Of a stretch of DNA of 64,000 nt, positions 32,801 to 64,000 are shown piece by piece (the stretch's first letter is position 1; every line of letters starts with the position of its first letter). The stretch comes from an uncultured virus (IMG/VR IMGVR_UViG_3300035665_000019) (taxonomy: Duplodnaviria; Heunggongvirae; Uroviricota; Caudoviricetes): the IMG/VR virus record IMGVR_UViG_3300035665_000019; one strand, written 5' to 3'. The notes under the pieces were generated by a model that saw only the letters and a list, made by a program, of their open reading frames with translations, made no database searches and had not been told where the DNA came from. Position numbers and translations under genes: made by a program.

Positions 32801-34269
32801 TTTATTTCTAATGTATTAGTTGCACTAATGTTATTATCAATATTAGTTACTTTTACATAAATAATAGATCTAATCCTATCAGATATTGACATGAATGATT
32901 CAATGCAATACGAAGAATATCCTAGAGGAAGGATTCCGGCAGAAGAATCAAATGTGATAAATTCTGTTTTTAATAAATCTTGTGGGTTATCAGGATTAGC
33001 GTGTCCATATTCTATAACTCCTAATTCATAAATATAATTTGATGTTTCTGAAAGATTGGATGCTGTAAATTTAATAGGGGTTTTTAAACAAGAACCATAA
33101 TCACAAAAATTAATATTGAGTATCGGAGCATCAGCAAATGATACACTATGTTGCTTCGGCGTAGGAGTTAATGTTGGAGTTGGGGTCGGTAAATTTAATG
33201 ATGTTGGAGATATACTGAAACAATATTTATCTACGCTGATTACTGCTCCATTACTTGGATTAATTAATGATGCTTGTATCTCATAAAATCCATAAGAACT
33301 ATCTTGTTGACGTAATTTAGGAGGATGCATATATAGAATATTATTAATATATACATTATCCTTAACACTCTTAATTCTTTTTATTCTTTTATCTATCACA
33401 AATAATTTACGACGAACGATATCTTCAGAATTAGGAACAATAGTAAATGTATTGGATTCTATATTATATTTGTATATTCCATTGACATTATTGTAAGATT
33501 CTACAAAATAGTATAGTTGATTGTGCTTAATAAAAAGACTATTATTAGATAAAAATTCAGAATTTAAAGAAAGTTCATTCTCTGTGTTTGATAAAACGTC
33601 GATATCTCTAAGTACAAAATCATAAACATCATAATACTCAGCATCACCAGCAAGAATAAAATCTAATTTTAATATGTATTCTTTGCTAACAGAACTTGGA
33701 GTAAGCTTAGTAGTAAAAACAACAGGTCTGAAATCAAAACTATTAGCCAGGTCTAGAGATATAACATTGTTTATAGGGTCTAGTGACGATCCATCTGAAC
33801 TAGAAAAGTTCTTTTGAATAATCTCCATATCGAACAATATAGACGAATCAAAAGACTGTTCTGTAGAATACCAAATATATGGTAAACTAGCATTTTCCTT
33901 GGAAACAATAATGTATGTTTCGTTAGGTGTTATCGTAGTGAATTGATTAAAATTATCTAATAAACCAAAATATACTTCATAAGCAGAATTTTTATTGACT
34001 TTATAAATTTTTTGTACATTTTTAAAAAATGACTCATAATATTTACTGAGAATATTATTTTTAAAGATATACAATCCATTTTCATTAGGATTAGACTGAG
34101 TACTTAGAAGAACTAATTGATTGTTTTGAATACCATTAGCTATTGCAAAACTAATATTATTAGAAATATTGACAGCATAAGAAAAAGTATAATCAGGCAC
34201 TAGGCTTATGTCTTCTGTTCCCTTGTACTGGATAATTTGTATTGGTTTAGTTATATGCTGTTCGTACAT
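26836..34269 (-). CDS. Giant adhesin-like protein, 2477 aa: Thr/Pro linkers, LamG/concanavalin-A-like domain, FN3 domain
   Basis: LamG motifs [27 protein letters not shown] (~29950-30680). FN3 segment SAPLSLVAT...[22 protein letters not shown]...[17 protein letters not shown] (~28125-28410). Three long TPT tracts. Confidence 0.85.
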
Positions 34270-42393: not shown

Positions 42394-45300
42394 TTATGAC
42401 CCATACAAATTAATAGCATTTTCGGAAACCTTAGCTAATTGACTAAATGCTTTATCAATTTCGCTCTTTACTATATCGCTAACATAGGCATTGAGATTGT
42501 TAAACACACTAGCTCCATTAATATTGACGTTAACATCATGTTTTGCGTTTATCGTAATCACCGGCGGTATATTCAATTTGAGCAAACTCTTGCTAAATTC
42601 ATCAAACCTATTACTAAATGTAGTTAATGCTCCCAAGCTAGTGCTATCAATTCCAATAGTTGGTAGTCTAAGTTCCAAAAGCTGTTTAGCAAATTGATCA
42701 AATTTGGCCGTAAAGTCCCTTAAAGCTGCTATAGATTTTTCATCCAATCCAATATATGAATTTAATACACCTTGCTGTTGGTTTCCTCCTACAATACCAC
42801 CCATGTTTCTGTATATTGGTCTTATTGTTCCTCCTCTGCTAGCATACTGAACAATATTGCCCTGAGTATAGTTTCCTTGATTAATAGCTTCTAAAATAGG
42901 CATGTATCTTTGACTAGAATCTTTGTTAATTACAAATTCTCCTGGTGTTAACATTGCAGGAACAGTGTCTGTGCCTTTTGCTGACCAATCAATATTATTC
43001 GGCTTGTAACTTTGATTATATATCAATCCTCCAGAAGCTCTGGTTTGAGGTTGGCTCTTTTTATCTGGTTCGGCAGAGGACATTCCTAATGCTTCGGCAC
43101 CCTTTTGAGCACTAGGTAATAGTCCTCCAAATCCCTGCATCTCGTCTTTTTTAAGTTCTGCTAAGTTTTTACCAGCACCAACAGAAGCTAAATAAAATGC
43201 TCTAAAAGTATTTGGACTATTAGCCGAAGCTTTGTCTGCTAGAACAACTAAATCGCTACGATCCCAAATCTCATTGGGAGGTTGCAACATAGTTCCTTCA
43301 TTTAATTTGCTATATGCTTTATTAGCATTATTATAATTGTCTTCAATGTATGTTTTATACATATCAAAAATTTCTTGAGTATAAACGCTTGGTTTTATAT
43401 CTCTTGTTTGGCCAAATTCTGTAGCTATTAATTTTCTAAGCTCATTAACTCTCTGAGCTTGATCATCTGTTAGTGTTCCAAGTGTTGGGTTACTCGGATC
43501 AACTGGTCTTGGGCCAGTTATAGAATCTACAAACTCTTGCGCCGAAAGAGCCATGTTGTCTACGACTGTTCCATATAACGAATTATAGTCTGCTCCTCCT
43601 GTTAGTCCTGGCATAGCATTTAATAAAAAGTCTGGTAAACCTCCAGACACTTGACTTATTTTCGCTTGTACTGCTGCTCCAACAGCAGGATTATACAATT
43701 CTGCAGAAGAGGTTGCTTTCAATAACATATAATCTCTAGCAGATAAATATTCTTCAATATATTCGAGATCATTTGACATATCTTCCCACCACTCTTCGTA
43801 TCCAGAATTTTCAAAATTTGGAGCATCAAAATTGGATCTTGCTCTATCTTCTATTAATGCTCTTAGCATAGAACGTCTGCCAATTTGCATAACTTGATAT
43901 TGATCCATCATTTGTTCATAAACGCCGCCAGGACCAGTAAAAGTTGTTGGCGCTTTAGCTTCGTTAGCTCCTCCTGTTGTAAGATCAAATGCTATGTCTT
44001 CTCTTCCTTTTTTGTCTACCATTGTACCATAAGCATCTAAAATTGCTTGTTCTTCTGGTTGTACCGAATCTTTTTTATATCCTCTACGATAACTTAAAAG
44101 AGTTCTTGCTCTTCTATCATCTATTTTACCTTCTTGTTCTGATAAAACAGTTTGAACAAATCCGGCATCAGAAGCTAATTTAGCATTGTCCCAATATGTT
44201 CTTTCTAATCCAGCTCCAGTGTCATCATAGTCTCTTTCCCATGGCTTATCTCCTTTTTTGTTTCTGTCTGGTGCTTGTAAAGTAACTTTTTTAGTAAATT
44301 TCTTTAGATCTTTTTCATATCTATTATATAGGCGTTTAGAAAAAGGATTATCTTTAGGACTATTATCGTCCTTATATGATGTTGCGCTTCCTCCAGCTGT
44401 TCTAGACTCTTCCATAAATCTCCAAGCAGAAACTAACTTACCCAAAGAAGATATATTTACTCCTCCTGATTGTTTATATTTATCCTGACTCTCTTCATTT
44501 GCAGAATAGGCTTCTACGGTTTTTGCTCTAATCCAAGCTATATAATTTTGAGCAGGAAAAATGTCCTCGTCTGCTTTGATCTTATCTGGCGGATCTGCTA
44601 TTGTTCCGGCGGCAGCTAATATATAGCTTCTTTTCCATTCGGCAGCGTTCCTATATCCATCTACTCCAAGGTCTGGAGCCGTGTCTTTAACTGCTTGCCA
44701 AACTGGATCTGCTGTTACAAAAGCTTGATCAGGATCCCATAATGGTAATTTTAATCCATCTTTCTTTAAGAGTGATTTACCAAGACTAGATGCTAAATTA
44801 TATTGTAATAAGTTTTCCCTTAATTTTGATTCATTATTAGCGCTTGTATCTTGAGATCTTTTTGCGTATATATATTCATATTTTTTAAATAAAGCATTAG
44901 ATATATCAGCAACTTCCGCATTCTCTGGAACATAATTACCTTGTTCAAAATTCTTACCTCCTTCACTATCTGTTACTTCTCTATCGAATTGTGTTGTATT
45001 ATTAACACTTCCAACAAATTTATCTAGTGCTGTAGGTAGTTTTATAGGCGAAAGAGGCAGATAAATGGATGGTTTGTTGAAAATTTCTTTTTCAACCCAA
45101 TATTTAACAAATTTTTCCATACTTTTTTCGTCCTGATACGCTGGAATCACAGCGTTAGGCTGAGCCAAGCCGACAAATGGATTAATACTAAAAGGATCTA
45201 TTTTTTGTTGATTTTCCCACCATGGAACTAATGCAGTAAGTGATTGAGCGGTATAGTCCATACTATCTTTATCAAATAAAAGAGATGATAATGAGTCATA

Positions 45301-48300
45301 TGGGAATTTGATTTTTGCTGTATATTGATTAGGATCTCTTGTGTCTGTATATGATTTACTAAATACTTTAGGAATGACTTTAAAAGAAGAGGCCCCTGAA
45401 GATAATGCCATTTCTTTTTTAACTGCTTCCATAGTTTCTGCTGTGAATATGCTATTTTCTCCCCAAGACCAAGGCAATCCTTTAGTATACTGTTGATCAA
45501 ATTCTGCTCCGGTTAAAAGATTTCTTAATTTTTTGCTATATTGTAATGTAAATAATTTATCATTTGCTCCAGTTTGCCAATATTTTTTAAGGTCTTCATC
45601 TTTAATTCCAAAATTAGTTTTCATAGACTCTGTATTAGGCCATCTACCTTTAAAAGCTTCTGAATATACATCTAATTTTTCAAAATCTCCATCTATGCCA
45701 GCCATCTTTTTAAATTCATCGCTCAAATCTTCTTCTTTGAGTTGGATATGTGTTATTTGATTATTAATTAATTTTCTTAAGGCTTTATTTCTAGCGTTAG
45801 TTTGTTCTTCTATAGGAGTAGTGCTTCTTGACTTATCTTTATCTAGTTTATCTATATAAGCTCTCCATTCTTCTACTTGTATAACTGATTTATATTTATC
45901 GGTAAAAGACTTAAGCTGATCTTCTGTTGGTATTGTTTGAATACCCCCAGATATTACTGCTGTATTAGTTGAATTTGCCAATGGAGATGTAGAAGATGTC
46001 GCATAGCCATATTTAGTAACGCTAAAAGATGGCTCAGATAAATTTCCTCCTACTAAAGATTGGTCTATAGAAGTGTTTGGTTTATTAAAACTAAGACCCA
46101 TATATTTATCTGGTATTGAAGATCCTAATATGAGTCCATATTTTCTAAAACTTGCGCCATATTGACCAATATTTGCTGCAGAATTTATGGCGCCGCCGTC
46201 TTTTGATAAATTAATTTCTTTTTGTTTAACATCAGACAATCCTTTGTCAACCTGATCAAAAATCGATGTTAGTTTTTCTTTCTGTAATTTAGCTTGGTCT
46301 TCTGATAAAAGAGTTGTTCTTGCTCTAGGTCCTTTTCCGCTTGCTGATCTGTCATTTAAAACATCAAAAATATCTGGATTTCCTAAATCTAATAGATCCT
46401 TGGTAACCATCTGTTTTTGTAATGATTTACGATTGGCTGTAACGGTGGCTCCAGTTGCACCAGCAATAGCATTTGCACCCCAGAATATTGGTAAATAGCC
46501 TAAATTGCCTGCGGATCCGTGAAAAACAGTTAGATCAGGAAACCAACCTAGTTTACCTCCGGTTGGAGATCTATTATCTTTAATCCATTTTGTTGTTGAC
46601 TGTTTATCAAGACCGTCTGCTGTTGAACCAGAGTTATTAAAAGTAGGATAGGCTGATGCTTGGTATCCTTGTAAAGCTCCAAAGCCTTGTTCTAAATCCA
46701 ATAAATTTTTAGCAACATCATCACTAGATCCTAGCTTAGAGAAGAAAGATCCTGTTAATGGTTGTCCTCTCAAGTCCTCATAAGGATCGCTAAAATCTTT
46801 AAGATGCGGTGATTTTACGTCTCCAACAATACCACCAGCTGCTCGATATGTTACTTTTCCTCCTTTGGCAAATTGTCCACTATTAATAGACTCTAATAAT
46901 GAACCATGCTTTTGAGTTGCTGATCTGTTAACAACAAATTCTCCAGGAGTTAACATGGCAGGCACAGTATCGGTACCTTTGGGCTTAAATATTGAGCCTC
47001 CAACAGCCTTATATGTTATGTATCCACCTTTAGCTGCTGTGGTTACATCATCAGAAGAACCACCACCAATATTACCTTGAGGAAATACTTTAATTCCATC
47101 TCTAAGTCTACTGTCTATACTATTAATTTTATTTTTTACATCACTACTTTCTGCTAATTCGAATTTTTGAGTTACTGTTGCTAATGATGTTCTTAATAAT
47201 TCGTCTGATTTTGTTGCCATGTCTTGTGCTACTTTTCCATCTAACATAGCAAGATATACATTGGCTTCTTGTTGTAGCCTATTGGCTTCTTGATATTCTT
47301 TAATAGCAGCATCCATTTGAGGATCTCTTTCTGGATTTCTTAATCCTTGAAGAGCCTTTTCAAATAATGGAGACATTTGAACACCAGATTCTCTCATCAT
47401 ACTTTCTAATACATTAGCCTTTAATTCATTTTGTTGATCTCCTAGTAATGGAGCTATCATATTAAATGCATCTAAGGTCTCTTTACGATCTTGTGCAGCA
47501 GCCTCTTGGGCCTTATTCATTGCTTCTGCTTGGGTAGAACCGCTTGTTAGTGAGTCTCTATATGCTTTCTGAACATTTACAGAATCCCACATGCTATTTG
47601 TGGCGCCATCCATATTATTTTGTAGTCTTTCAAAAGCAGAAGAGAGTTGATTTTGTTCTTGTGGTGTTGATGTTACATATCTTTCTAAGATATTAGTTCT
47701 AGCAGCATTCTGTTGTTGTATATCATTTATTTTATTCAATGCTGCTGATGCAACATCGCTACTTTCAGCTAATTCTTTTAAAGCAGCGTGATTCTCTCTC
47801 ATTTGTAATGTAGTAGTCTTTAATTGATTAGTCATTACTACATATTCTTGAACTGCTCCTCTGTTAGCAGCAGAAGTTACTCTTGATTGTTGCTGCTGTC
47901 TTTGCTGTTCTAAATTTGCTAAATTTTCGAATATTTGTCTTGGGTCAGTTGTTCCTGCTAAAGACTGAACATTTGATCTAACATTAGACTTGGTAGCTTC
48001 AAAACTGGTTGATTTTCCAAGTGCTCTTGATAGATCTTCCTCAGACTTGATTCTTAAGTTATTAACTCTTCTTAATCTTTCTCCAATATTATATTGTAGT
48101 TCTGCAAGACTATTTATAGACTCTGAGTATTCATTAAGTGACTGCTGGAAAAACTCCAGTCTTTTAACAGCCATTTCTTGGGCTCTTTTAGTTGCATCAA
48201 CAACTTTTGCTAATCCTGGTACTTTATCTGCCAAGTCATCAAAATCAATCTTTTCATCACCATCTGTCCTCATTTTGGAAACTGCGGCAGAAGTTTGCGA

Positions 48301-51300
48301 TGCTAATTTTTGTTTTAATGAATCTCCAATATCTAATCCTTCTATTTCGTTCGCAACAGACCTATTAACAGCTGCTCCTATTTTTTCAGATGATCCTTTA
48401 GAGTTTTCAGCCAAAGCATTATTAATTGACGATAAAATTCTACCCTCTATATTTGATCCATACTCAAGTAATCCGGTAACGCTTTTGCCTTGAGATCCCA
48501 TTAATGAACCAGCTAAGCCATATGCTTGTGTTTTTTCTTGTCTACTGGCAACATTAGGATTACGGATTACATCTATAGCATCTAATGTAACTTTCCCAAT
48601 TTTTGCCTGACCCTGTAAAGCTGCGGCTGATAATTCTGCAGACGATCTTAATTTATCAATAGAGTAAGAGGTCGAGTCCATTGCCTGTTCCATATTCTGA
48701 AAGCTTCTTTCCAAGCTAACCATATATGATTTACTTTCATCTGCTGCTCTTTCTTGTTCTCTTTGTATTCTAACTTGTTCTGCTTGTTTTCTTAATTCTG
48801 CACTAGCTGTGGATGCAATAATTTCTTGTTTTTTTGCATCTCTTAGTTCTTTAGAAACAGATAGGTCTGCATCTATAAGTCTAAGTTGTTCTTCTGTAGC
48901 AGCATTGGATCTGGCTATTAATTCTGCTTGTTGTTGCCATTCTGGAGCTGATTGAATTTCAGATTCCGAAACGCCCGATTTAAATAATTGTTCAAAATAT
49001 TGATCTTGTCTTTGTCTAACTGGAGTTAGAGTTGCTGCAGTTTCTGCTGCCTGAACAGAAGCTAAGGATCTAGAAAGATTGGTTTGTGTATTAGAATCAA
49101 ATAATGATTGAGTATAGGCCCCTGTCCCAAATCTATTTGCTATTTCTGATCTTTGAGAAATCTGCTCTTGTCCGCCTCTACCAGAGAAATATGCTACGGC
49201 TTGATCTGACGCATAGCCCGCAGTAGCACCAATCGCAGTTCCTAATAGGGCCCCTATTACTGTACCAACACCAGGAAATATTACTGTTCCAATTGTTGCA
49301 CCAGCAGTTGCTCCTCCAACAGCACCACCAACAAGACCTCCTCCTACGGTCCCAATATTTTCTCCAATAATACTAGCATATCCTCTGTCTGGATTAGTTT
49401 TATTAAGATTTACTATTGTTAATGCTGCACTAGTTGCTTTGGCTAATTGTTCGCCAGCAACTTTGAGCGCAAAAGCATTATCTGTTGTATTTTTTGTATA
49501 TAATTCTAAAGCTTTATCAAATTCTTCCAAACCTTGAGTCATATTATTTTTGGCTATTTCTTCTGTTTGTTTTCTAATAGCATCATTATATGCCTTAAAT
49601 GCTTCTATTCCAGCATAAATAGTCGCAGCGGCTATAGCTAATCCTGCTGCTGCTCCTCCTGCGGCTTGAACTCCGGTTGTACCAAATCCACCACCAGCAG
49701 TAAAAGATCCAATACGTTGTCTAACTAGTTCTTGAACACCTTCTGGTAATACTTCATATGCTCCTTTTATTGCTCCAGCAGCACTATACACTGTTCCAGA
49801 TGCTGTGGTGATGCTATTTGCAAAACTCTGTACAACCGCACCAACTGCAGACTTTTCTCCTATAGTTTCTGCTAAGAAATTTGCTGCGACTCCAACAACA
49901 CCAGTAAGTACATTAAGTCTAGTAGTAAATCTATCCATAGATCTAAAACTATTATTAATTACTCTAGATCCATATCTATCTAAAATTTCTTCTCTAGTCC
50001 TTGGTCTTCTTTCTGGTCTTTCTGCGGGTGTTCTTTCTCTGGTATCTGACGAATCTCTTACAGTAGCAGAAAGTCTGTCTATTACTTCTGATAACTGTCT
50101 AATTCGTTCCATTAAGTCTCTTATTGTTGGATCAGAATCTCCACCTGAGCCTGGGCCAGACGGAGGGACAACATCGCCATCAGCGAACCTATGTACAATT
50201 CCTCCTCTATTATAACCCTGTATTTTATCCGCATGATTTAATTTTTTAAGTTTGCCATATCCAATTTTTTGAGCTGCTTTTTTATTAATTACAAATTCAC
50301 CAGGAGTTAATAATGCTGGTACAGTATCTTCTACTGATCCTCCTTGAGCAAAAAATGATAATTGTTGACTTTGTAAAAATGACTTATATTTATCATCATT
50401 TAAATTGACAATATCTGAGCTATTTAATAGCTCTGAATTTTTACTATATCCACTTTGTAATATCCAAGCAGGATCAGAATATGGTGGCCATGTATTTTTA
50501 TCTCCTAATAATTTAGGATCAATTAAGGCAGAGTTCTGTGTCCATTGATTTCTATCTAGTGGTGTTTTTCTTACATCTGATCTATTATTAAAATAATATG
50601 ACCAAACACCTTTTGCAGCATCGCTAACAATATTTCTATCAGGAGCTAACATACCACCATTGGCTGTGGCCGCTTCCATAACAATATCATAAAGCTTAGG
50701 ACCATATCCTTCACTAGCTTTAGACAAACCGACAGTATATAAGTTATCTGCCATTTTTTTTGCACTAACCATACCACTACGATCTTTTGTGCCCAAATAT
50801 GCTGCTATAATTTCGGACCCATTATTTTTTATTCCAATTTTTCCAAAGTTTTTCTCCTTTTTTTGACCTTCTACCGACCCACCGTCTGCAAAAGTTTCAA
50901 TATTACTCGGCTTGAGCGGTGATGATCCAACATACTTTAATGCTAATCCTAGTGGTTTTTCAAAAAGTTTGGATTCAAAAGAATTTACTAATTCGGGGTC
51001 TCCAGATTGAATTCTAGACATAAGCTGCCCAAGCAAAGCTCCTTCTCTAACATCTCCCCCACTTCCGGCATAAATAGATTTTCTTGATCCTCCAGGCAAG
51101 GTAAACTCTGTTCCGTCTTCGGACTTTAATGTTTGAGATCCTTCTTGAATACTTACTCCAACCGACATCATTCCAGCGTCTGGATTTTTATCAAACTTAC
51201 CTTTTAATCCGGTTTGATTTTCAGTAGGAGCATATTTATCTTTAAGAGTATCGTAATTATCATGCATCCATTGTACTACTAGTCCTTTTTGCAATTCATA

Positions 51301-54300
51301 ATCTAAATCATAATCTTTAGGGCTTAATTGTTCATTAAAAGTTAATACCATAGGCTTTCCTGACCTATCGCCTTGAGCAACAGTAAAGTTGCTTCCTCCA
51401 TTAACTCTCATATTAGCTTGTTGTTGTGCTTTATTCTTTTCTGTATATAAGTAGAATCCTTCTCCTTGACCATAGCCTTTAGCAATATTAGAAAGAGCTC
51501 CCTTTTCTTTAAAACTATTTAAAACACTATCATTTATTCCTGTATTAGATCCATGATAAAGTTTAACTTTTCCACCAGTAGCAAAAACTTGTAAAACTTC
51601 TTTATAATATCTTTCAATTTCTTCTCTTGTTCTCGCTAAACTATCTCCATTAATAGTTCTTTTAACTTCTGTTGGCATATCCGGATCTATACCAAAAAAC
51701 TTAGCCGCATCTCCTAGTCCATCTGGATAATCTATTGGTCTATTTGCAGGAGCATTTTCTCTTAATGGGGCTCCGAGTCTTGCTAGAACTAACTCTATCA
51801 TTGCCCCTTCTATGCCAGCCTGTCCTGCTTTTACAGCTGGCCCTTGAATATTTGCTAGTGATTGTGCTCCAAATCCTCCTGCTGTTTCCAAATTTCTAGC
51901 AAAATTTTCATTAACTCCAAATATCTCTCTTTGCATTTGATATACAGCTTCTGCATATTGAGATCTTAATCCTCTAGCTATTATTGTGGTGTTTCTTCCT
52001 CCTATATCTTCAGGGCCAAATTGTTTACTATAGTCCCACTTAGGGTCATAAATTGTTCTACCCTGATCATTAGTTCCAACTTTAGTTTCTCCAAATAATC
52101 CAACCAAGCCAAATTTCATTGCTTGATCCATAGCCTGCTGCTCTGCTCCAATAACTTCTGCATATTGAGCTAAGATTTTATCTTGTATTGTTTTTTGTGA
52201 TTGATTAACAACTTTTTTCTTTAAAATCTCTAATATTTCTGTTGATCGAACGCCACCTATTTTTGCTGCTGGTTCTAACCCTCCAAGAGCATCAATTATT
52301 TTTCTCGCTGGGGCAGGAAGTTTTTGAACCATCTCTCCTGCCATAAATTTTTGTATCAATCCTCCCTGAGCAAACTTTAATCCGTATTTATCTGGTTGAT
52401 CTGATGCTAATTTATCTAAAAGTCTGTATGGCTCAAAAGCTCCAGCGCTTTGTAATTTAGTTTTTTTCTTTCTTAACTCTTCTAATAAGGCAATTTTAGC
52501 AGCATACTCCGGATCGCTCTCCGCTTGTTTGCGATTAATTCTTTTGATTCCTATGTCGGTTATTTGTTTTTCTACAGCATCAACCGATGATTGTTGTGAA
52601 GCTTGTACTTGTTTAATAATTTCAGGTAAAACATTAGCTCTATTCTGTAATATTGGTAAATTTTTTGATATAATATCGTAAACACCAGGAGATAAAACGT
52701 CTTGCAATTGGTCGATCTTACCGGACATAATTAAGTCACGAACCATTGTACCGCTAATTCCGCCAGTTCTTTCTAAATTAGTAACATCATAACCAGCATC
52801 TTTGTATTTTGCCATTTGTTCTGGAGTTTTGTCTGCTACAAATGCTCTACTTCCTTTTTGTGGCAATATTACTTTGCGTCTTCCTGTGCCTTCGGATATA
52901 TCAAAACCTTGAGGAACTTCAAAATCTCTTGGTTTTGGCAGAACGGTGGCTCCCTTGGCTCCGAACCCGGCCTTGGCTAGCAATACTCTAAAATCTTGAT
53001 CAAATACTGCTGTTCTATAACTACTAGGATCTCCTGCCTTAATTCCTTCATTAGCTCCAACAAGAGCAATAAAGTCTTCTGGAGCAAAACCCATTGCTGC
53101 AGCAGCATCCATGATACTTTCATGACCAGCTGTTGTTGGTGCGAAACCTCCCCAAGTAAATGCTAATTTCTTTTTTATAACTTCTACAAGTTCTTGTCCT
53201 TGTTTTCTTCTTAGATTTCCAGAATCGCCTCTTCCTAACACAACTGATTTTTTACCTAATTGAGATAATAATGCTTCTCCAACAGTGGTATCTGATGATG
53301 CAGATCCTGTTGTTCCTGGTGCTCTTCCTTCTAATCCTATTCCGCTGATATCTCTACCTAATCTCTGAGCCATTACTTTTTCTTGCTCAGATTTTGTTGA
53401 AGAACTAAGTGCGTAAACTCTATCAACTTCAGTAAAAAAATCTTCCATTTTAGACTTAGAAACACTACTACTTAATATTAATATTTCATTTGCCTTTTTA
53501 ATATCATCGGGACCTAATATTGGAAAACGAGTTGTTTCTCTTAAAGATCCTTTATCTGTGCCTTGACCTCTTGCTAATGTTGTTTTGCCACTGCCAGCAA
53601 CACCGTAAATTGCTTTTAATTTATCTAAATCTCCAGCTTTTCGCGAAGATACTGCTAATTTTGTTAAAGCATCAGTATAAAGTCTAGGTCCAGTAACTCC
53701 AAGCTCTGACATTCCTTTTTCTACAATGCTTTTATTTGCTTCATTAGCGATAACGTCATAATCAATATAGCCAACATTTCTTCGTACTTTTCCTCCAAGA
53801 GCAAATTTTTTGACAATACCTCCGATATTTAATTCATTCCCATCTTCGTCCCACTTTCTTCCTGTTGTGTACTCGTCATCTATAGAAAATCCAGTTTTAG
53901 CTAAGTATCTACCAACACCACCTCCACCAGGAACGGTTTTATCGGCTGCTGCTGTTCCTACGAATTGATCAAGTTTACTTTGTAATTGCTTTGTTGCTTC
54001 TGCTGCTGCTGTTGCTGCTGTTTCATTTCTAGAAGTTACTCTATAATTTTTTGGAACTTTATATCTACCGGAAGACTCTTGTAAAGGGGGTTCTTTTGGA
54101 TTTAGAGACATTATCTTTTTTGCTCTGTCCGTAGAAACTAAACTCGATTTACCTCTTGTTTCATACGTATCAAATTCGGCAACTCTAAATCTTGCCGTAA
54201 ACTGATCTCCTGTTGGCGTAACAGTTGCGTCGAATGTATCTCCGTCAACAGCTCTAAAGTCACCATCTATACTTGCTAATTTAGCTGCCTTTCCACCCTT

Positions 54301-56340
54301 AGCAAATCTTTGTCTTCTGAGCCTATTACCAGATCTAATACTACCACCATTACTATATTTATTCATTCCATATAATTGATCTGCCCCTAGTGTCTCAACA
54401 GCCTTTTTTCTAATAACAAATTCGCCAGGGGTTAACATTGCTGGTACAGTATCTCTATTTCCTTGTCCAGGGACAAGTCCGCCTCTAGCAAAACCTGTTC
54501 CTCCTGGCCTGGATACAATTGTTGCGTTAAGGTCTACTACTGAAGTATTCAATACGGATATCTGTGAGACTAATCCGGCTATACTATTAGTAGATAATGC
54601 TTGTATAGCATTTGTTAAGGGGTCAATGGATCCCTGTAAACTATCTAAAGAAGTTGTTACATCTTGCAAGGATGAACGGAAATCGTCTCTACCGCCACCT
54701 CCTCCACCACCGCCGCCTCTTCCTCCTCGTCCACCACCTCCGCCGCCAGCACCACCTCCGCCACCGCCACCTCCAGCATCGCCACCAACACCAGGCCTTA
54801 ATCCTCCTATAAATCCACCAATAAAGTTGGTTAATGCTCTTCCTCCTCTAACAGCAGCTATCGCTGTTATTATTGGTAGTAACGGCTGAGCAACATCTGC
54901 GAGTCTTATTAAAACATTAGTTAGTGTGAGTCCAAGCTTAACTAAATTCTGAAAACTATTACTTTGACCAATCTCTCTAATTAATGCAACAAAGTTTTCT
55001 CTGGTTTTAGTAAATTGTACAGCTAATGACTGTTGGGCCTTAACAGCATCTAGAGTTAAACTAGAAGATCCTCTTTGAGCAACAGCAAGTGCCTGTTGTG
55101 CTGTTCCAAACTGTTGAATAAGAGGTAGAACCTTACCAATTTGTCTAAAGCCACCAAGTTCTTCTACTATTCTAGAAAACTTTACATCTCTTGGATCTAG
55201 ACTATTTAATCCTTCGCTAAGTAATTGAACAGCTTTGTATGCTCCGACGAATTTACCCTCAACATCTTGTAGATTAACTCCGTATTCTTTTAGTGCTTCT
55301 ATGGTTCCTTCTCTTTGAATTCTAGTAAAAATTGTTCTCAATCCTGTTGCAATAGTCTCGGCACTTTCACGAGTTGTTGCTCTTACGCTAGTAAATACAG
55401 CAATGAATTCGTTAAGAGCATCTGTTCCTTCGCTAACTCCTTTACTTGCACTAGCGAACACACCACCAGTACGCTGAATAGCAGTAATAATATCACTAGA
55501 TTCGACTGCAAATGCTGCGGCCACAGAATTAACAGAACCCAAAGCAGATTGAAGTTGTCCAGCGCTAATACCGAACTGTCTCATCAAAGCAATAGAACCT
55601 TCCACTGTTTCATTAAGATCATCAAACGACGGAGCCAAAGCAGTTAAAGCCAATGCTCTTAATGCCTTTTCTGTTTCACCAGCACTAAGTCCTGCTTGAG
55701 CAAGAGTATCTGCTATTGTGATCAAGCTAGATGAACTAACTCCAAGATTGGTTGATAAATCAGTAATAGTATCGGTTATTCTTCCTAAACTTTTATATGA
55801 TTCTCCAGTGATCTGTGTTAATCTTACTAATTGTCTATCAAAGTCTATAAACTCTCTGGTTGCGCTAGTAACAGCATTTACTAATCCATAAATAACACTT
55901 GTTGAAACACTAAATGCAGCAAATCTTCTAACAGCTAGTCCTGCTTGTCTTCCGAATTCTTCCATCTCAGAAGTTGCTGCTCTTGTGGCTCTTGCGGCAG
56001 CAGTAACATCTCTAGCAGCCGCTCCCACATTAGTTGTTAGATCTCTTAAACCATTGCCAGCTCCATTAAGAGCATTACGTAAATTATTAATTGTTCCAGC
56101 TAAAGTATTAATATTAGCATTTGCTCTAACGGCATTTGCTGCAGTTGCCGCTAGAGTAGTATTTAGTCTTTGCAAAGAAGCATTTGCAGTATCAATTGAT
56201 CTTTGTGCATTTCTATCAATACGAACATTAACATTCGCTGTGATATTACCCAGCTGTCTTCTAATATCATTAATAACTGGCCTAAGATTAGAAGGTCCTC
56301 TTAGGTTTAATTCAGCAGTAAGATTGAAAGCTCTTGCCAT
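42394..56340 (-). CDS. Tail tape measure protein, 4648 aa, with embedded enzyme-like cargo modules
   Basis: N-terminal TMP core (FDRQLVRLTQITG...LGVSSSSLITIADTLAQAG; ESAETIATGLRTIFTRI). Gly/Ala hydrophobic segments at ~49200-49900, long coiled-coil regions and four DTVPAxLTPGEFV motifs. GAGG SD at 56347-56350. Lies downstream of the tube and chaperone genes. Confidence 0.92.
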   Translation of the reverse strand: MARAFNLTAELNLRGPSNLRPVINDIRRQLGNITANVNVRIDRNAQRSIDTANASLQRLNTTLAATAANAVRANANINTLAGTINNLRNALNGAGNGLRDLTTNVGAAARDVTAAARATRAATSEMEEFGRQAGLAVRRFAAFSVSTSVIYGLVNAVTSATREFIDFDRQLVRLTQITGESYKSLGRITDTITDLSTNLGVSSSSLITIADTLAQAGLSAGETEKALRALALTALAPSFDDLNETVEGSIALMRQFGISAGQLQSALGSVNSVAAAFAVESSDIITAIQRTGGVFASASKGVSEGTDALNEFIAVFTSVRATTRESAETIATGLRTIFTRIQREGTIEALKEYGVNLQDVEGKFVGAYKAVQLLSEGLNSLDPRDVKFSRIVEELGGFRQIGKVLPLIQQFGTAQQALAVAQRGSSSLTLDAVKAQQSLAVQFTKTRENFVALIREIGQSNSFQNLVKLGLTLTNVLIRLADVAQPLLPIITAIAAVRGGRALTNFIGGFIGGLRPGVGGDAGGGGGGGGAGGGGGGRGGRGGGGGGGGGRDDFRSSLQDVTTSLDSLQGSIDPLTNAIQALSTNSIAGLVSQISVLNTSVVDLNATIVSRPGGTGFARGGLVPGQGNRDTVPAMLTPGEFVIRKKAVETLGADQLYGMNKYSNGGSIRSGNRLRRQRFAKGGKAAKLASIDGDFRAVDGDTFDATVTPTGDQFTARFRVAEFDTYETRGKSSLVSTDRAKKIMSLNPKEPPLQESSGRYKVPKNYRVTSRNETAATAAAEATKQLQSKLDQFVGTAAADKTVPGGGGVGRYLAKTGFSIDDEYTTGRKWDEDGNELNIGGIVKKFALGGKVRRNVGYIDYDVIANEANKSIVEKGMSELGVTGPRLYTDALTKLAVSSRKAGDLDKLKAIYGVAGSGKTTLARGQGTDKGSLRETTRFPILGPDDIKKANEILILSSSVSKSKMEDFFTEVDRVYALSSSTKSEQEKVMAQRLGRDISGIGLEGRAPGTTGSASSDTTVGEALLSQLGKKSVVLGRGDSGNLRRKQGQELVEVIKKKLAFTWGGFAPTTAGHESIMDAAAAMGFAPEDFIALVGANEGIKAGDPSSYRTAVFDQDFRVLLAKAGFGAKGATVLPKPRDFEVPQGFDISEGTGRRKVILPQKGSRAFVADKTPEQMAKYKDAGYDVTNLERTGGISGTMVRDLIMSGKIDQLQDVLSPGVYDIISKNLPILQNRANVLPEIIKQVQASQQSSVDAVEKQITDIGIKRINRKQAESDPEYAAKIALLEELRKKKTKLQSAGAFEPYRLLDKLASDQPDKYGLKFAQGGLIQKFMAGEMVQKLPAPARKIIDALGGLEPAAKIGGVRSTEILEILKKKVVNQSQKTIQDKILAQYAEVIGAEQQAMDQAMKFGLVGLFGETKVGTNDQGRTIYDPKWDYSKQFGPEDIGGRNTTIIARGLRSQYAEAVYQMQREIFGVNENFARNLETAGGFGAQSLANIQGPAVKAGQAGIEGAMIELVLARLGAPLRENAPANRPIDYPDGLGDAAKFFGIDPDMPTEVKRTINGDSLARTREEIERYYKEVLQVFATGGKVKLYHGSNTGINDSVLNSFKEKGALSNIAKGYGQGEGFYLYTEKNKAQQQANMRVNGGSNFTVAQGDRSGKPMVLTFNEQLSPKDYDLDYELQKGLVVQWMHDNYDTLKDKYAPTENQTGLKGKFDKNPDAGMMSVGVSIQEGSQTLKSEDGTEFTLPGGSRKSIYAGSGGDVREGALLGQLMSRIQSGDPELVNSFESKLFEKPLGLALKYVGSSPLKPSNIETFADGGSVEGQKKEKNFGKIGIKNNGSEIIAAYLGTKDRSGMVSAKKMADNLYTVGLSKASEGYGPKLYDIVMEAATANGGMLAPDRNIVSDAAKGVWSYYFNNRSDVRKTPLDRNQWTQNSALIDPKLLGDKNTWPPYSDPAWILQSGYSKNSELLNSSDIVNLNDDKYKSFLQSQQLSFFAQGGSVEDTVPALLTPGEFVINKKAAQKIGYGKLKKLNHADKIQGYNRGGIVHRFADGDVVPPSGPGSGGDSDPTIRDLMERIRQLSEVIDRLSATVRDSSDTRERTPAERPERRPRTREEILDRYGSRVINNSFRSMDRFTTRLNVLTGVVGVAANFLAETIGEKSAVGAVVQSFANSITTASGTVYSAAGAIKGAYEVLPEGVQELVRQRIGSFTAGGGFGTTGVQAAGGAAAGLAIAAATIYAGIEAFKAYNDAIRKQTEEIAKNNMTQGLEEFDKALELYTKNTTDNAFALKVAGEQLAKATSAALTIVNLNKTNPDRGYASIIGENIGTVGGGLVGGAVGGATAGATIGTVIFPGVGTVIGALLGTAIGATAGYASDQAVAYFSGRGGQEQISQRSEIANRFGTGAYTQSLFDSNTQTNLSRSLASVQAAETAATLTPVRQRQDQYFEQLFKSGVSESEIQSAPEWQQQAELIARSNAATEEQLRLIDADLSVSKELRDAKKQEIIASTASAELRKQAEQVRIQREQERAADESKSYMVSLERSFQNMEQAMDSTSYSIDKLRSSAELSAAALQGQAKIGKVTLDAIDVIRNPNVASRQEKTQAYGLAGSLMGSQGKSVTGLLEYGSNIEGRILSSINNALAENSKGSSEKIGAAVNRSVANEIEGLDIGDSLKQKLASQTSAAVSKMRTDGDEKIDFDDLADKVPGLAKVVDATKRAQEMAVKRLEFFQQSLNEYSESINSLAELQYNIGERLRRVNNLRIKSEEDLSRALGKSTSFEATKSNVRSNVQSLAGTTDPRQIFENLANLEQQRQQQQSRVTSAANRGAVQEYVVMTNQLKTTTLQMRENHAALKELAESSDVASAALNKINDIQQQNAARTNILERYVTSTPQEQNQLSSAFERLQNNMDGATNSMWDSVNVQKAYRDSLTSGSTQAEAMNKAQEAAAQDRKETLDAFNMIAPLLGDQQNELKANVLESMMRESGVQMSPLFEKALQGLRNPERDPQMDAAIKEYQEANRLQQEANVYLAMLDGKVAQDMATKSDELLRTSLATVTQKFELAESSDVKNKINSIDSRLRDGIKVFPQGNIGGGSSDDVTTAAKGGYITYKAVGGSIFKPKGTDTVPAMLTPGEFVVNRSATQKHGSLLESINSGQFAKGGKVTYRAAGGIVGDVKSPHLKDFSDPYEDLRGQPLTGSFFSKLGSSDDVAKNLLDLEQGFGALQGYQASAYPTFNNSGSTADGLDKQSTTKWIKDNRSPTGGKLGWFPDLTVFHGSAGNLGYLPIFWGANAIAGATGATVTANRKSLQKQMVTKDLLDLGNPDIFDVLNDRSASGKGPRARTTLLSEDQAKLQKEKLTSIFDQVDKGLSDVKQKEINLSKDGGAINSAANIGQYGASFRKYGLILGSSIPDKYMGLSFNKPNTSIDQSLVGGNLSEPSFSVTKYGYATSSTSPLANSTNTAVISGGIQTIPTEDQLKSFTDKYKSVIQVEEWRAYIDKLDKDKSRSTTPIEEQTNARNKALRKLINNQITHIQLKEEDLSDEFKKMAGIDGDFEKLDVYSEAFKGRWPNTESMKTNFGIKDEDLKKYWQTGANDKLFTLQYSKKLRNLLTGAEFDQQYTKGLPWSWGENSIFTAETMEAVKKEMALSSGASSFKVIPKVFSKSYTDTRDPNQYTAKIKFPYDSLSSLLFDKDSMDYTAQSLTALVPWWENQQKIDPFSINPFVGLAQPNAVIPAYQDEKSMEKFVKYWVEKEIFNKPSIYLPLSPIKLPTALDKFVGSVNNTTQFDREVTDSEGGKNFEQGNYVPENAEVADISNALFKKYEYIYAKRSQDTSANNESKLRENLLQYNLASSLGKSLLKKDGLKLPLWDPDQAFVTADPVWQAVKDTAPDLGVDGYRNAAEWKRSYILAAAGTIADPPDKIKADEDIFPAQNYIAWIRAKTVEAYSANEESQDKYKQSGGVNISSLGKLVSAWRFMEESRTAGGSATSYKDDNSPKDNPFSKRLYNRYEKDLKKFTKKVTLQAPDRNKKGDKPWERDYDDTGAGLERTYWDNAKLASDAGFVQTVLSEQEGKIDDRRARTLLSYRRGYKKDSVQPEEQAILDAYGTMVDKKGREDIAFDLTTGGANEAKAPTTFTGPGGVYEQMMDQYQVMQIGRRSMLRALIEDRARSNFDAPNFENSGYEEWWEDMSNDLEYIEEYLSARDYMLLKATSSAELYNPAVGAAVQAKISQVSGGLPDFLLNAMPGLTGGADYNSLYGTVVDNMALSAQEFVDSITGPRPVDPSNPTLGTLTDDQAQRVNELRKLIATEFGQTRDIKPSVYTQEIFDMYKTYIEDNYNNANKAYSKLNEGTMLQPPNEIWDRSDLVVLADKASANSPNTFRAFYLASVGAGKNLAELKKDEMQGFGGLLPSAQKGAEALGMSSAEPDKKSQPQTRASGGLIYNQSYKPNNIDWSAKGTDTVPAMLTPGEFVINKDSSQRYMPILEAINQGNYTQGNIVQYASRGGTIRPIYRNMGGIVGGNQQQGVLNSYIGLDEKSIAALRDFTAKFDQFAKQLLELRLPTIGIDSTSLGALTTFSNRFDEFSKSLLKLNIPPVITINAKHDVNVNINGASVFNNLNAYVSDIVKSEIDKAFSQLAKVSENAINLYGS

Positions 56341-56421: not shown

Positions 56422-57330
56422 CTACTCTGTCTCTGAAGAAGTTTCTGTATTTGGAAGAATCTTTGGTGGCACTGGTGCTGGCTCTGATTCTGCTGTAACG
56501 GTTTCTGGTTTTGGTTCATCTTTTTTATCTTCATCTAGGACTACTGGATTTCCGTCATCATCTAAAAATGGTTTAGTTTCTACAATGTATTCGCCCTCTT
56601 TGTCCACTCTGTTTCCAAATTTGTCAACAAAGTTACCACTCTCATCAATAAACCTACCGTTTTCATCAACAAGCCTACCCTCATTATCTGTTAATCTACC
56701 CTTTTTATCAATAAATCTTAATTTATCATCAATAAATTTATATTTCTTTAAAAACTTATTTTCTGGTAAATTATTTTCGTAATCATTATCCAAACCATAC
56801 AACATTGCGGCTAAATTTTGAGCACCAAGTACTGCTGCTTCCTCATTGGCCCTATTCAAATAGTCCTCCATATTCTTAAAATATGGATCCTTATTATCAT
56901 TATTATACACCACACAAGCAGATACCAAGTAGTTGAAACGAGCATTGTCTGCTTGTCCTTCGGCGCTATGATTGTCTAAAGAAGTTTTAACGGCTATTAG
57001 AGATCTAATTTCATCTCTGTATTGTCTCATTTTAATAGCAGCTTCTCTAGCTTGCCTCAATGGAATACCTCCGCGAGCTAACTGCCTTTCAGATTCAAGA
57101 AGTTCCTGCTGTAATTCAGCAAACTTAGCCTGTTTATCTTGATTCCATAAACCTTGATCTTCTAATAGATCATCCATCTTTGCTCTAACAACACATTTAG
57201 ATTTAATAGCGTCTGTAAAAGCCTGATTATAAACCTTTTGAGCCTCTCTTTGATCATTAATAGATGGAGTACGAACCATTAGCTCTGTATCTTTCTCATT
57301 AACAGTAATCTTGAAAGTTTTAGTTTTCAT
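56422..57330 (-). CDS. Putative tail assembly chaperone, 302 aa, with DxxG heptad repeats
   Basis: Directly upstream of the TMP. Helical N-terminus, repeats DKKGRLT/DNEGRLV/DENGRFI/DESGNFV/DKFGNRV/DKEGEYI and an acidic tail. Confidence 0.6.
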   Translation of the reverse strand: MKTKTFKITVNEKDTELMVRTPSINDQREAQKVYNQAFTDAIKSKCVVRAKMDDLLEDQGLWNQDKQAKFAELQQELLESERQLARGGIPLRQAREAAIKMRQYRDEIRSLIAVKTSLDNHSAEGQADNARFNYLVSACVVYNNDNKDPYFKNMEDYLNRANEEAAVLGAQNLAAMLYGLDNDYENNLPENKFLKKYKFIDDKLRFIDKKGRLTDNEGRLVDENGRFIDESGNFVDKFGNRVDKEGEYIVETKPFLDDDGNPVVLDEDKKDEPKPETVTAESEPAPVPPKILPNTETSSETE

Positions 57331-62448: not shown

Positions 62449-63429
62449 TCAATTAGTCTTTATAATAGCGCTCATACCTTTTTGATTATATAAGTTATCG
62501 CTATTTTTTATATATTTCTTAATAGAACCATTTTTAGAAAGATGAAGCCAATTGATAAATATATCATTATCTTCATTTACATTATTAATTAATTTACCAC
62601 ATATTAATGGTTTATTAAATATAAAACAATTGTTATTGTATGTAATTATTATTTTAAAAATTTCTTTTAAGTTTTTATTTTCTATGAGAATAAAATCTTC
62701 ACTATCAGATACTTCTATTGTCTGATTGTCTAAGCCCACAATATATCCAAATATTCTTTCTAGCGAATGGGGAATGGTTCCTTCTTTTATATCTGAGATC
62801 ATTCCAAAATTTAAAGTATTGTATAGAGTGTCGCAGATCTCATTGGGGAAATATTTTTTAAATAATTCTGATTTTGCCATGAACATTGTTCCTCCAATGA
62901 ATTTACAATTATCATTATTATAATCTGATAAATTTAAAATATGAGTCATTAAATATTCTATTATATTTTTATTATAAAATTCTTTATCATTATTCAAGAT
63001 AAGAGCTCTGGATCCTATCATTCCAATCTTATTGTTATTATCCATTTTAGAAATGTTATTTTGGAAAATATTTTTATTTCCTATTAATGCATTTACTAAA
63101 AATTCCCTCCAATTTACATTTTTATATCGACCCCATAGAGATTTTTTAGAATGTAACTTAATAAAGTATTTATGCTTTTTTGGATCTAGATCTTTCATTT
63201 GTAATAGGAATGGTCCTATATCAACTCCTCTATTATCCACATATCTAACAATACTGTTCCCATTAAAAGTATTTAAGCAATCTTTCTCAATATATTCGTT
63301 ATTATTTTCTATGTCATCATTACATAATAATAAATCTATATCTATATAGTCTTTTATTTTTAGCAATAATTCTTTGTATTCTTCCCATAAGGAAGGATAA
63401 TATAGATAAATTAAAATTTTAACTTTCAT
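62449..63429 (-). CDS. Rhamnan synthesis protein F (RgpF)-like glycosyltransferase, 326 aa
   Basis: Motifs VDNRGVDIGPFL, FIKLHSKKS, WR..L, FIGGTMFMAK and HSLERIFG, typical of the RgpF family. Confidence 0.8.
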   Translation of the reverse strand: MKVKILIYLYYPSLWEEYKELLLKIKDYIDIDLLLCNDDIENNNEYIEKDCLNTFNGNSIVRYVDNRGVDIGPFLLQMKDLDPKKHKYFIKLHSKKSLWGRYKNVNWREFLVNALIGNKNIFQNNISKMDNNNKIGMIGSRALILNNDKEFYNKNIIEYLMTHILNLSDYNNDNCKFIGGTMFMAKSELFKKYFPNEICDTLYNTLNFGMISDIKEGTIPHSLERIFGYIVGLDNQTIEVSDSEDFILIENKNLKEIFKIIITYNNNCFIFNKPLICGKLINNVNEDNDIFINWLHLSKNGSIKKYIKNSDNLYNQKGMSAIIKTN

Positions 63430-63434
63430 AAATC

Positions 63435-64000
63435 CTAAATCGCTTTTATAGCAAACATGTATCCTTTGTTTCTATATAGATACGAACTACTAGTACTATC
63501 AGAAGTCCAAAATACTCTAAAAATTAAATCGGGAGTAGATGTTACGCAAAATATTTCTTTTTCAAAAGAAAAACCACTACTAGATATATTTCTAATATAT
63601 GTATTGTTTAGATCATTGGAATCTATACCATATATATATGTAATATCTTGATTTGGTAAAGTAATTAAAGCGTTAACATCACTAGTAATAGAACTTAAGC
63701 TTGTGGCACCATTGCGGGGCTCAAATGTCATTCCTATTTTAATAAAATATGCTCCAGTATTAGTTAACTGTAAATAAATAGGATCTAGTTCAGAATTAAG
63801 ACTTGTTCCTGGAGCTTTGCCAAAACCTGTGGATTGATAAGAAGAAAATCCTAAAGACCCACTACTGCCGGTTTTTCCTTTTGGTCCACGAGGACCAACA
63901 CTACCATCTCTACCGGGCGGACCTTGAGGACCAGGAAATCCAGAACTTATTTCAATTATATTAGATACAAATAAATTATCTTCTATATTTAATATTTCAG
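63435..64000 (-). CDS. Collagen-like (Gly-X-Y) protein, 5'-partial
   Basis: The frame of the 98-aa ORF stays open to the right edge: ...IIEISSGFPGPQGPPGRDGSVGPRGPKGKTGSSGSLGFSSY...IKIGMTFEPRNG, with 11 consecutive Gly-X-Y triplets (~63850-63945). Confidence 0.8.
   Translation of the reverse strand, partial: EILNIEDNLFVSNIIEISSGFPGPQGPPGRDGSVGPRGPKGKTGSSGSLGFSSYQSTGFGKAPGTSLNSELDPIYLQLTNTGAYFIKIGMTFEPRNGATSLSSITSDVNALITLPNQDITYIYGIDSNDLNNTYIRNISSSGFSFEKEIFCVTSTPDLIFRVFWTSDSTSSSYLYRNKGYMFAIKAI

Follow-up and report, generated by a model that had tools for sequence, protein, structure and literature searches.

According to the available portion of PMC12617516, the tape measure protein (TMP) gpH of bacteriophage lambda loses a C-terminal piece of ~14 kDa from a glycine-rich region, giving gpH* and gpHC; the cut site and the catalyst of this reaction have been open since 1983 and were still called unknown in 2025. 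The same text describes residues ~690-817 of gpH as unresolved in the structure and residues 818-849 as binding gpI (PMC12617516). Meanwhile the TMP of T5, pb2, is, as stated in the excerpted text, cut into pb2* and pb2C after R1127, a position mapped by mass spectrometry (PMC10038345), and Tal of the lactococcal phage TP901-1 is reported, in the part of the article at hand, to undergo proteolytic processing at a junction that is rich in glycine and precedes the catalytic domain (PMC11409707). In the case of the polyvalent proteins, mosaic evolution and a predicted proteolytic release were described, and a zincin-like MPTase was proposed as the processing enzyme; the words "tape measure", "linker" and "glycine" have 0 occurrences in its main text (Iyer et al. 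2017, PMC5512222). The present analysis deals with a giant TMP encoded by DNA of an uncultured virus (IMGVR_UViG_3300035665_000019), in which the short motif FAxGG recurs many times, and with the function that this motif may have. The whole stretch of DNA analysed, hereafter the window, represents 64 kb of a 206,291-bp viral contig, which it matches at 100% identity.

A recurring junction motif and the R module

The protein in question is the product of a single open reading frame (ORF) of 4,648 aa (42394..56340), located, as are all of its parts described below, on the minus strand. Its family matches mark it as a TMP of the TP901/PF10145 type: PF10145 (PhageMin_Tail) covers residues 190-384 (E 9.8e-24, 84.8 bits vs a cut-off of 33.2), and the TMP PHROGs 4211, 28, 167 and 4704 match the ORF as well, the first three of them over residues 40-583. 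Known TMPs share only 20-26% identity with the N-terminus, and a megablast search against GenBank phages revealed no close relative of the window.

All 19 pentapeptides that had been listed in an earlier note on this DNA were confirmed in the translation of the ORF, the coordinate quoted for each being the low end of its last codon. They span residues 617 to 4515 and are, hence, internal to the TMP. In 2000 composition-preserving shuffles, from which the poly-Gly tract (residues 515-550) was taken out, neither FA.GG (8 observed vs 0.14 expected) nor [FY]..GG (12 vs 2.39) was ever reached (0/2000 each). The same applies to two G[GDE] dipeptides separated by seven residues, i.e. units placed 9 residues apart (9 vs 1.48; 0/2000), which bears out the observation that many motifs occur as pairs about 9 codons apart. 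The loose class (F/Y/R/K/A)-x-x-GG, in terms of which the motif had originally been described, is enriched too ([FYRKA]..GG, 24 vs 10.4; reached in 1/2000 shuffles), but it is strongly diluted in comparison with FA.GG. Its R-, K- and A-initial variants are nevertheless accepted as real because they are aligned with F or Y in paralogous copies.

The motif is also specific. [FYW]A.GG was found 8 times in the TMP and only once in the 16,507 aa encoded by the other 20 window ORFs (FARGG at residue 1312 of the 2,477-aa ORF 26836-34269), although several of these ORFs encode giant multidomain proteins, too. The motif logo, for which 1,314 unique contexts were taken from 249 giant relatives, reads GG-x-[VI]-[QRN]-[KR]-[FY]-A-x-G-G-x-V; Gly stands at -6/-5 in 33-38% of these contexts, K/R occupies -1 in 50%, and V is the residue at +6 in 61%. 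The tandem arrangement of the two GG dipeptides within the logo explains the 9-codon pairs. FAxGG(xV) is a non-random, TMP-specific junction motif of the protein level, and that it has been selected as such at cassette boundaries appears very probable.

Thirteen of the 19 pentapeptides are the flanks of a ~75-aa module, designated R, which is present in four copies: R1 (54271..54510, residues 611-690; FARGG 617, PGEFV core, YSNGG 662, FAKGG 679), R2 (50158..50373, residues 1990-2061; FAQGG 1997, PGEFV, YNRGG 2043, FADGD 2052), R3 (46804..47058, residues 3095-3179; AAKGG, KAVGG, PGEFV, FAKGG 3157, RAAGG) and R4 (42784..43059, residues 4428-4519; RASGG, PGEFV, ASRGG, RNMGG). The general pattern FAxGG...DTVPAMLTPGEFV...YxxGG-xx-FAxGG can be detailed as [F/x]AxGG, a variable loop, (T)DTVPAMLTPGEFV(I/V)xK, ~20 residues, Y/FxxGG, four residues and F/YAxGG; the core may also be written as [ST]D[ST]VPAxLxPGEFV, followed by a helix-turn-helix, YxxGG and FAxGG. 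The hmmsearch domain E-values of R1 to R4 were 1.3e-27, 5.5e-28, 5.8e-38 and 1.9e-37, respectively, and four stretches of this TMP match phrog_35029, to which no function is given. None of the four copies matched Pfam at E≤10 or NCBIfam at E≤0.1, and a search of the ESM Atlas with R returned hypothetical proteins only.

R1 is nearly invariant in 41 related loci, and residues D26, T27 and E36 of R are invariant in 45 sequences. Among 72 unique R1 cores the amino acids do not vary, whereas all four Gly, Pro, Ala and Val codons and all six Leu and Arg codons are in use; the mean pairwise nucleotide identity of these cores is 0.747 and the median longest exact common run 11 nt, while the four R copies of this gene are 69-77% identical over 70 nt. 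An invariant peptide encoded by scrambled codons indicates selection on the protein and not on a DNA recombination site. The best match of R1 is the first R copy in 201 of 248 relatives (mean identity 0.61), the protein identity between the R copies within this TMP being 0.41-0.52; the copies are therefore positional orthologues and not recently homogenised repeats.

At E≤1e-3 a profile of the four copies matched 18,672 representative proteins, 5,493 of them at E≤1e-10, and the best 150 matches are proteins of 2,122-7,872 aa with 4-11 copies each. The 249 giant proteins contain 1,126 R copies (median of 4 per protein), the first of which starts at median residue 531, whereas the last ends a median of 148 aa before the C-terminus; here, R4 is the last copy and ends ~128 aa from the C-terminus, as compared with ~65 aa in lambda and ~70 aa in Achromobacter phage JWF. 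As for the motif itself, of the 1,397 [FYW]A.GG in these giants 964 are no more than 25 aa away from an R copy, and the other 433 are free-standing. Among GenBank phages, 133 records match R (Gordonia 91, Synechococcus 7, Mycobacterium 7, Pelagibacter 4, others), mostly in annotated TMPs, and among the matches listed the Gordonia phage TMPs mostly have two R places. In the literature searches, neither the motif nor giant cargo-bearing TMPs were found to have been described; the R module is very widespread and, as far as these searches show, undescribed.

R was also observed outside siphophage TMPs, namely in a 950-aa virion lysozyme encoded beside the TMP of the T4-like cyanophage Synechococcus phage S-SCSM1 (2171-5023), and in hypothetical proteins of Pelagibacter phages. 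The "putative lysin" of Achromobacter phage JWF (17616-23099 of the record, ~1,827 aa) is a TMP by position, with R ~70 codons before its end; the genes that come after it are lambda-like M, L, NlpC/P60 (K-like), I and J-like ones.

The family HMM (profile hidden Markov model) built from the 1,126 copies matches residues 733-788 of lambda gpH with an E-value of 2.4e-9, and the landmarks of R are found there as FATGG 733, GEFV 754 and YATGG 778. The 4-copy profile gave an E-value of 0.09 for residues 750-784 of gpH (8iyk_H) and of 1e-4 for gp16 of mycobacteriophage Douge. Judged by these profile matches, R is homologous to gpH 733-788. Pfam PF09718 (Tape_meas_lam_C) covers gpH 627-701 and not R, whereas NCBIfam TIGR01541 spans gpH 472-813 but does not match this TMP.

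AlphaFold models of residues 600-860 (11 sequences) had a mean pLDDT (predicted local distance difference test) of 48.9, with 25-45 in R1 and the joint that closes the following cassette; in R1 modelled alone (45 sequences; mean 58.7), only a helix pair at 41-55 was formed and the FAxGG units were coil. For R and the joints overall, the pLDDT was 25-61 although they are conserved, which a linear or assembly-dependent motif would be expected to show. The models thus do not predict R to fold on its own, and they would fit either a linear recognition motif or a structure that depends on assembly.

Module boundaries and cargo cassettes

The remaining six pentapeptides form four bare joints between the cargo cassettes M1-M5: J1 (53791..53832, residues 837-850; NIGG-IVKK-FALGG), J2 (52333..52374, residues 1323-1336; FAQGG-LIQK-FMAGE), J3 (51571..51585, residues 1586-1590; FATGG) and J4 (50878..50892, residues 1817-1821; FADGG). 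With residues 580-2100 as the query, 1,460 candidates were scored, of which 190 proteins (2,556-8,134 aa) were related at E≤1e-3. The boundary tests made use of the best 120 of these 190, or of 121 proteins with this TMP, and all of the 120 are mosaic. When this TMP was compared with them by BLAST, the ends of the high-scoring segment pairs (HSPs) were clustered at every listed motif site: HSP starts at 618, 840 (J1), 1326 (J2), 1583 (J3), 1817 (J4), 1993, 3104 and 4433, and HSP ends at 671, 854 (J1), 1324 (J2), 1595 (J3), 1822 (J4), 2059, 3174 and 4508. However, motif-free clusters were detected as well (524, 1381, 1493/1507, 2393 and others), and many xxxGG pentapeptides fall inside modules, e.g. 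FTWGG 1061 and ERTGG 1190.

Family-wide breakpoints were taken from an all-against-all BLAST of the 121 proteins (HSPs ≥150 aa), with proximity defined as ≤12 aa from a breakpoint cluster. FA.GG was near such a cluster in 481 of 545 cases (120 expected) and [FYW]A.GG in 682 of 787 (173 expected), whereas no enrichment was seen for the controls [FYW]A.AA (9/35 vs 7.5 expected) and [FYW]A.[^G][^G] (534/2,912 vs 632 expected), and PGE[FYW]V of the R core was depleted (26/423 vs 94 expected). The motif positions thus do coincide with homology breakpoints in the relatives. In the opposite direction, only 480 of the 5,751 breakpoint clusters lie near FA.GG, and therefore the original wording, according to which the motif marks every module boundary, is too strong: where the motif occurs it is usually at a breakpoint, but most breakpoints lack it.

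Relative to the F of the motif, the starts of long-HSP blocks peak at -8..0 and their ends at +4..+8, and the motif is therefore the overlap common to adjoining blocks. An alignment of 11 sequences shows this in one place: R1 and the joint that closes the cassette do not vary (F18, G21, G22 ... F247, G250; G251 nearly invariant), and the segment between R1 and J1 is of the DGDT type in 6/11 sequences and unrelated in 5/11. The relatives swap cassettes exactly at the motif, and the free-standing homologues of M4 end near FATGG and FADGG, so that the view of the cassettes as bounded by the motif holds well. One 5.4-kb viral contig, in which the homologous R1-M1 stretch (3099-3809) has an in-frame stop codon, was left out of the alignment.

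Cassette M1 (53833..54270, residues 691-836) contains a DGDT motif and is possibly SNase-like. There is no Pfam match in this copy; PF00565 is carried by one relative (P0009). AlphaFold predicts an M1 core at approximately residues 696-800 (pLDDT 57-76), and Foldseek found no match for the model of residues 600-860 in the PDB at E≤0.001. In 5 of 10 aligned relatives M1 is replaced by unrelated sequence. M2 (52375..53790, residues 851-1322) appears, from motifs read by eye, to combine a P-loop with a HIGH-type nucleotidyltransferase-like part, and its matches to PF16581 (E 8e-4) and PF01467 (E 0.25) are both below the curated cut-offs. M3 (51586..52332, residues 1337-1585) has an internal boundary at ~1493-1507 without a canonical motif. 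A PID...(T/A)EVK pattern resembling PD-(D/E)xK nucleases was noticed by eye in its well-conserved C-terminal part (~51650-51830, residues ~1505-1565) and again in the different cargo that some relatives have in place of M1; no family match supports it.

M4 (50893..51570, residues 1591-1816) gives a weak DUF3990-like match (PF13151, E 0.053, sub-threshold). Its free-standing homologues are 239-302 aa long and cover 96-100% of the cassette; their termini are within ~10 residues of FATGG and FADGG, and their conserved last F is aligned with the F of FADGG. M5 (50374..50877, residues 1822-1989) has no Pfam match.

Proposed processing sites or structural joints

Among the readings considered here, cleavage is favoured, followed by an uncut structural or docking joint, a passive linker, a self-processing R core and a dedicated GG-specific protease. 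By analogy with lambda and T5, the joints may tentatively be regarded as processing sites of TMP maturation, a plausible mechanism and the preferred one, yet one held with reserve. FAxGG would then be a protein-level recognition motif, found in the flanks of the ancient R module and also as a bare 9-residue unit, GG-x-V-Q-K-F-A-x-GG, which joins the cassettes; such units would be processing marks of the same kind as the trimming sites of lambda gpH and T5 pb2. With these marks multiplied in the giant TMP, the ruler would have become a polyprotein comprising the N-terminal ruler, the enzyme cassettes, a membrane/coiled-coil part, the insert M6 and a hub-binding tail, i.e. pieces that would separate either in the assembled tail or after ejection. 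As the same joint is present on every cassette, crossovers within it would stay functional, and it is proposed that mosaic boundaries pile up there for this reason.

A wider form of the cleavage reading, possible but more doubtful, postulates a universal code of TMP maturation: FAxGG/R would be the cut site of lambda gpH and T5 pb2, and giant TMPs would be cut into enzymes (nucleases, nucleotidyltransferases, ART-like) delivered into the host before the DNA, with the R core itself being catalytic in the boldest version. In gpH, cuts after the GG dipeptides at 710-737 were computed to release 14.6-12.2 kDa. In T5, the sequence is FVPR before and AEGGMMYPG after the cut, and if T5 is the guide, the cut would precede Ala, after the aromatic position, and would not follow GG as first drawn. 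Homology of T5 pb2 to R is not supported by the profile (score -2.6, only AEGGMMYP aligned), and the likeness is kept as a lead only. The cut at residue 1066 in JBD30, being a speculation of the respective paper from a PeptideCutter prediction, was not taken as evidence.

Several observations weigh against cleavage. There is no cleavage on record for this TMP or any giant relative, and searches of the TMP, of the other 20 window ORFs and of the precomputed Pfam lists of the 120 relatives turned up no peptidase family. The T5 resemblance is statistically unsupported, as stated above, and the mass of the piece lost from lambda gpH would place the cut at 710-721 no less readily than at FATGG 737. 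The constant distance of 9 residues between tandem units, together with V at +6 (61%), would suit a strand-turn element equally well, and a protease would need access to many sites of a protein that is confined in the lumen of the tail. Besides, a shallow alignment would also result in low AlphaFold scores.

Part of this evidence leads to the strongest alternative, which is somewhat unlikely on the whole: the joints would remain uncut, and the GG units and R cores would either form inter-chain strand-turn elements in the TMP oligomer or bind a conserved partner (candidates are the tail assembly chaperone, the tube lumen and the hub), keeping the chains in register while the cargo is packed and threaded out. 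The regular distance of 9 residues between tandem units (9 vs 1.48, with G at -6/-5 in 33-38% of the 1,314 contexts), the conservation of V/I at -3 and of V at +6, and the specificity of the motif for the TMP agree with such a role, and so does the conservation of the R core, which goes far beyond the needs of a cleavage site. The low pLDDT of the monomer fits folding only upon assembly, and the positional orthology of the R copies suggests position-specific roles. On the other hand, no structure displays R, since gpH ~690-817 and Douge gp16 outside 1658-1699 are unresolved in the structures as far as the available texts describe them, and an uncut joint gives no account of why two mapped or estimated TMP cuts fall at or near R.

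Considerably less probable is a passive flexible linker combined with a recombination scar, whereby the motif would persist as the cassettes are copied with their ends. The joints are Gly-rich, are predicted to be disordered and sit at mosaic junctions, as such a linker would; however, F, A, GG and V at +6 are fixed while the synonymous sites are scrambled, the neighbouring giant multidomain proteins are nearly motif-free (1 in 16,507 aa), and neither the short exact runs between R1 cores (median 11 nt) nor the 69-77% identity of the in-gene copies is in keeping with copied ends. The same data separate the two halves of the earlier idea of recombination joints for cassette exchange: cassettes are indeed exchanged exactly at the motif, but the scrambled codons, the 11-nt runs and the divergence of the copies speak against a recombination site in the DNA.

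It seems very unlikely that R processes itself, with the conserved D/E...GEF of its core acting as the catalyst that cuts flanking or nearby FAxGG units. Such an activity would explain what cleaves lambda gpH, a reaction whose catalyst is called unknown in the available portion of the source (PMC12617516). R is the only element, besides ruler parts, seen to be common to all 249 giants (1,126 copies), its D26, T27 and E36 are invariant, and no separate protease was found in the window. But R has no similarity to any peptidase family (Pfam, NCBIfam, ESM Atlas), AlphaFold shows no fold beyond the helix pair, 433 of the 1,397 motifs are >25 aa from any R core, and no conserved nucleophile stands beside GG.

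Viral polyproteins processed after GG (GG/X) and AG (AG/X) exist, GG is the invariant part of the motif, and the 206-kb contig comprises another 142 kb beyond the window, where a phage protease could be encoded. The least probable reading of all is nevertheless bacteriocin-type double-glycine leader or clan-CE-type GG/X processing by such an enzyme, for the motif is internal and has no leader context, the window ORFs have no match to C39, C48, C5, JAB, M23 or NlpC/P60 (Pfam, E≤1 or 1e-3), and the T5 cut, according to the excerpted text, precedes Ala and does not follow GG. The comparison with double-glycine leaders made in the earlier note is therefore not sustained, as the motif is internal and neither C39 nor any other peptidase family was found among the window ORFs (Pfam).

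Surroundings of the cassettes and comparison with known systems

The N-terminal region of the TMP (54799..56340, residues 1-514) is matched by 112-115 HSPs from the 120 relatives. Between this ruler domain and R1 lies a Gly/Arg homorepeat of 36 residues (54691..54798, residues 515-550), and HSP ends pile up in it at residue 524; a 2026 paper reportedly treats homorepeats in TMPs. R2 is followed by the middle region (47059..50157, residues 2062-3094), which consists of a charged stretch, Gly/Ala-rich hydrophobic stretches (~2210-2380) and a long helical-looking part, with residues 2500-3090 common to ~85-104 HSPs. The Gly/Ala-rich stretches (GxxxG-like runs, 49200-49710), located between R2 and the long helical part, are candidate membrane-inserting segments and give low-complexity DNA repeat families. 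M6 (43060..46803, residues 3180-4427), inserted between R3 and R4, has no Pfam match and is covered by only 1-18 HSPs per 50-aa bin. The C-terminal tail (42397..42783, residues 4520-4648) would correspond, by its position, to the hub-binding C-terminus of the lambda, T5 and Douge TMPs.

All large ORFs of the window are co-oriented. Domains of the fn3, RCC1 and CotH types are present in the giant proteins encoded downstream of the TMP, and on the upstream side there is a match to a collagen-like tail-fibre PHROG. The family scans of the window ORFs recognised none of the tube, chaperone, Dit and Tal families. The 2,957-aa ORF 12257-21130 (-) combines RCC1 repeats with a CotH kinase and an FGE-sulfatase-like domain, which is an unusual mix for a tail-region protein. 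Fibronectin type III domains are present in ORFs 22437-26822 (1,461 aa) and 26836-34269 (2,477 aa), both (-) and probably coding for fibre or baseplate proteins, the latter of which also matches phrog_15511. An RgpF-like (rhamnan synthesis) ORF and a collagen-repeat, tail-fibre-like ORF stand side by side upstream of the tail genes (62449-63429 and 63435-63998, (-)). Two ORFs just upstream of the TMP gene, 57646-57320 (108 aa) and 57330-56422 (302 aa), have an 11-nt overlap and lie where tail chaperone pairs lie. A programmed frameshift at 57320-57330 is not claimed, as no canonical slippery heptamer was noticed when the sequence was read by eye.

If the joints are processing sites, the conversion of lambda gpH into gpH* becomes a directly testable question, and a large undescribed set of TMPs (the 18,672 matches of the R profile) would be recast as injected effector polyproteins. 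The motif would then provide an annotation rule for domain starts and ends in proteins that Pfam leaves blank, and, as a natural splice point, it would show where the cargo of phage tails can be exchanged. Even without cleavage, a short motif that is conserved from lambda to marine jumbo phages and has no assigned function merits a structural look.

Among the described systems, lambda gpH is like this TMP in that R lies shortly before the C-terminus and, as far as the available portion of the source goes, adjoins the glycine-rich region where gpH is cut. It differs in having one R copy and no enzyme cargo, as opposed to four R copies and four bare joints here. In T5 pb2, AEGGMMYPG after the cut resembles the A-x-G-G-x-V-P-G of R1 (F-ARGG-LVPG), which is suggestive, and the cut separates the ruler from a C-terminal enzyme-bearing piece; however, by profile pb2 is without the GEFV core and the similarity is not significant. 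Gp16 of mycobacteriophage Douge (PDB 8ZDO) contains two R modules, 964-1034 and 1412-1461, but this TMP and those of Gordonia and other actinophages are ordinary-sized, and only residues 1658-1699 of the Douge protein are resolved. Tal of TP901-1, as described in the accessible part of the article, differs from this TMP in being a tail fibre/lysin with a single site, whose motif is NGGGNSGGGD.

The polyvalent proteins (Iyer et al. 2017, PMC5512222) are alike in that several unrelated enzyme-like domains are joined in one virion-associated polypeptide. An MPTase of the polyvalent type was not found here, the TMP (E≤0.01) and its segments (E≤1) giving no match to any peptidase family, and effector domains of that type are represented by sub-threshold matches only (PF16581, E 8e-4; PF13151, E 0.053). 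Relatives carry PF00565 and PF03496, and M4 has its free-standing homologues.

In polymorphic toxins, the border between constant and swappable parts is demarcated by motifs such as VENN (CdiA) and DPxGL (Rhs), which are linked to processing. These motifs play a role similar to that of FAxGG at the constant/swappable border, but there is no sequence relation, and the motif described here, unlike theirs, recurs many times in one phage tail protein.

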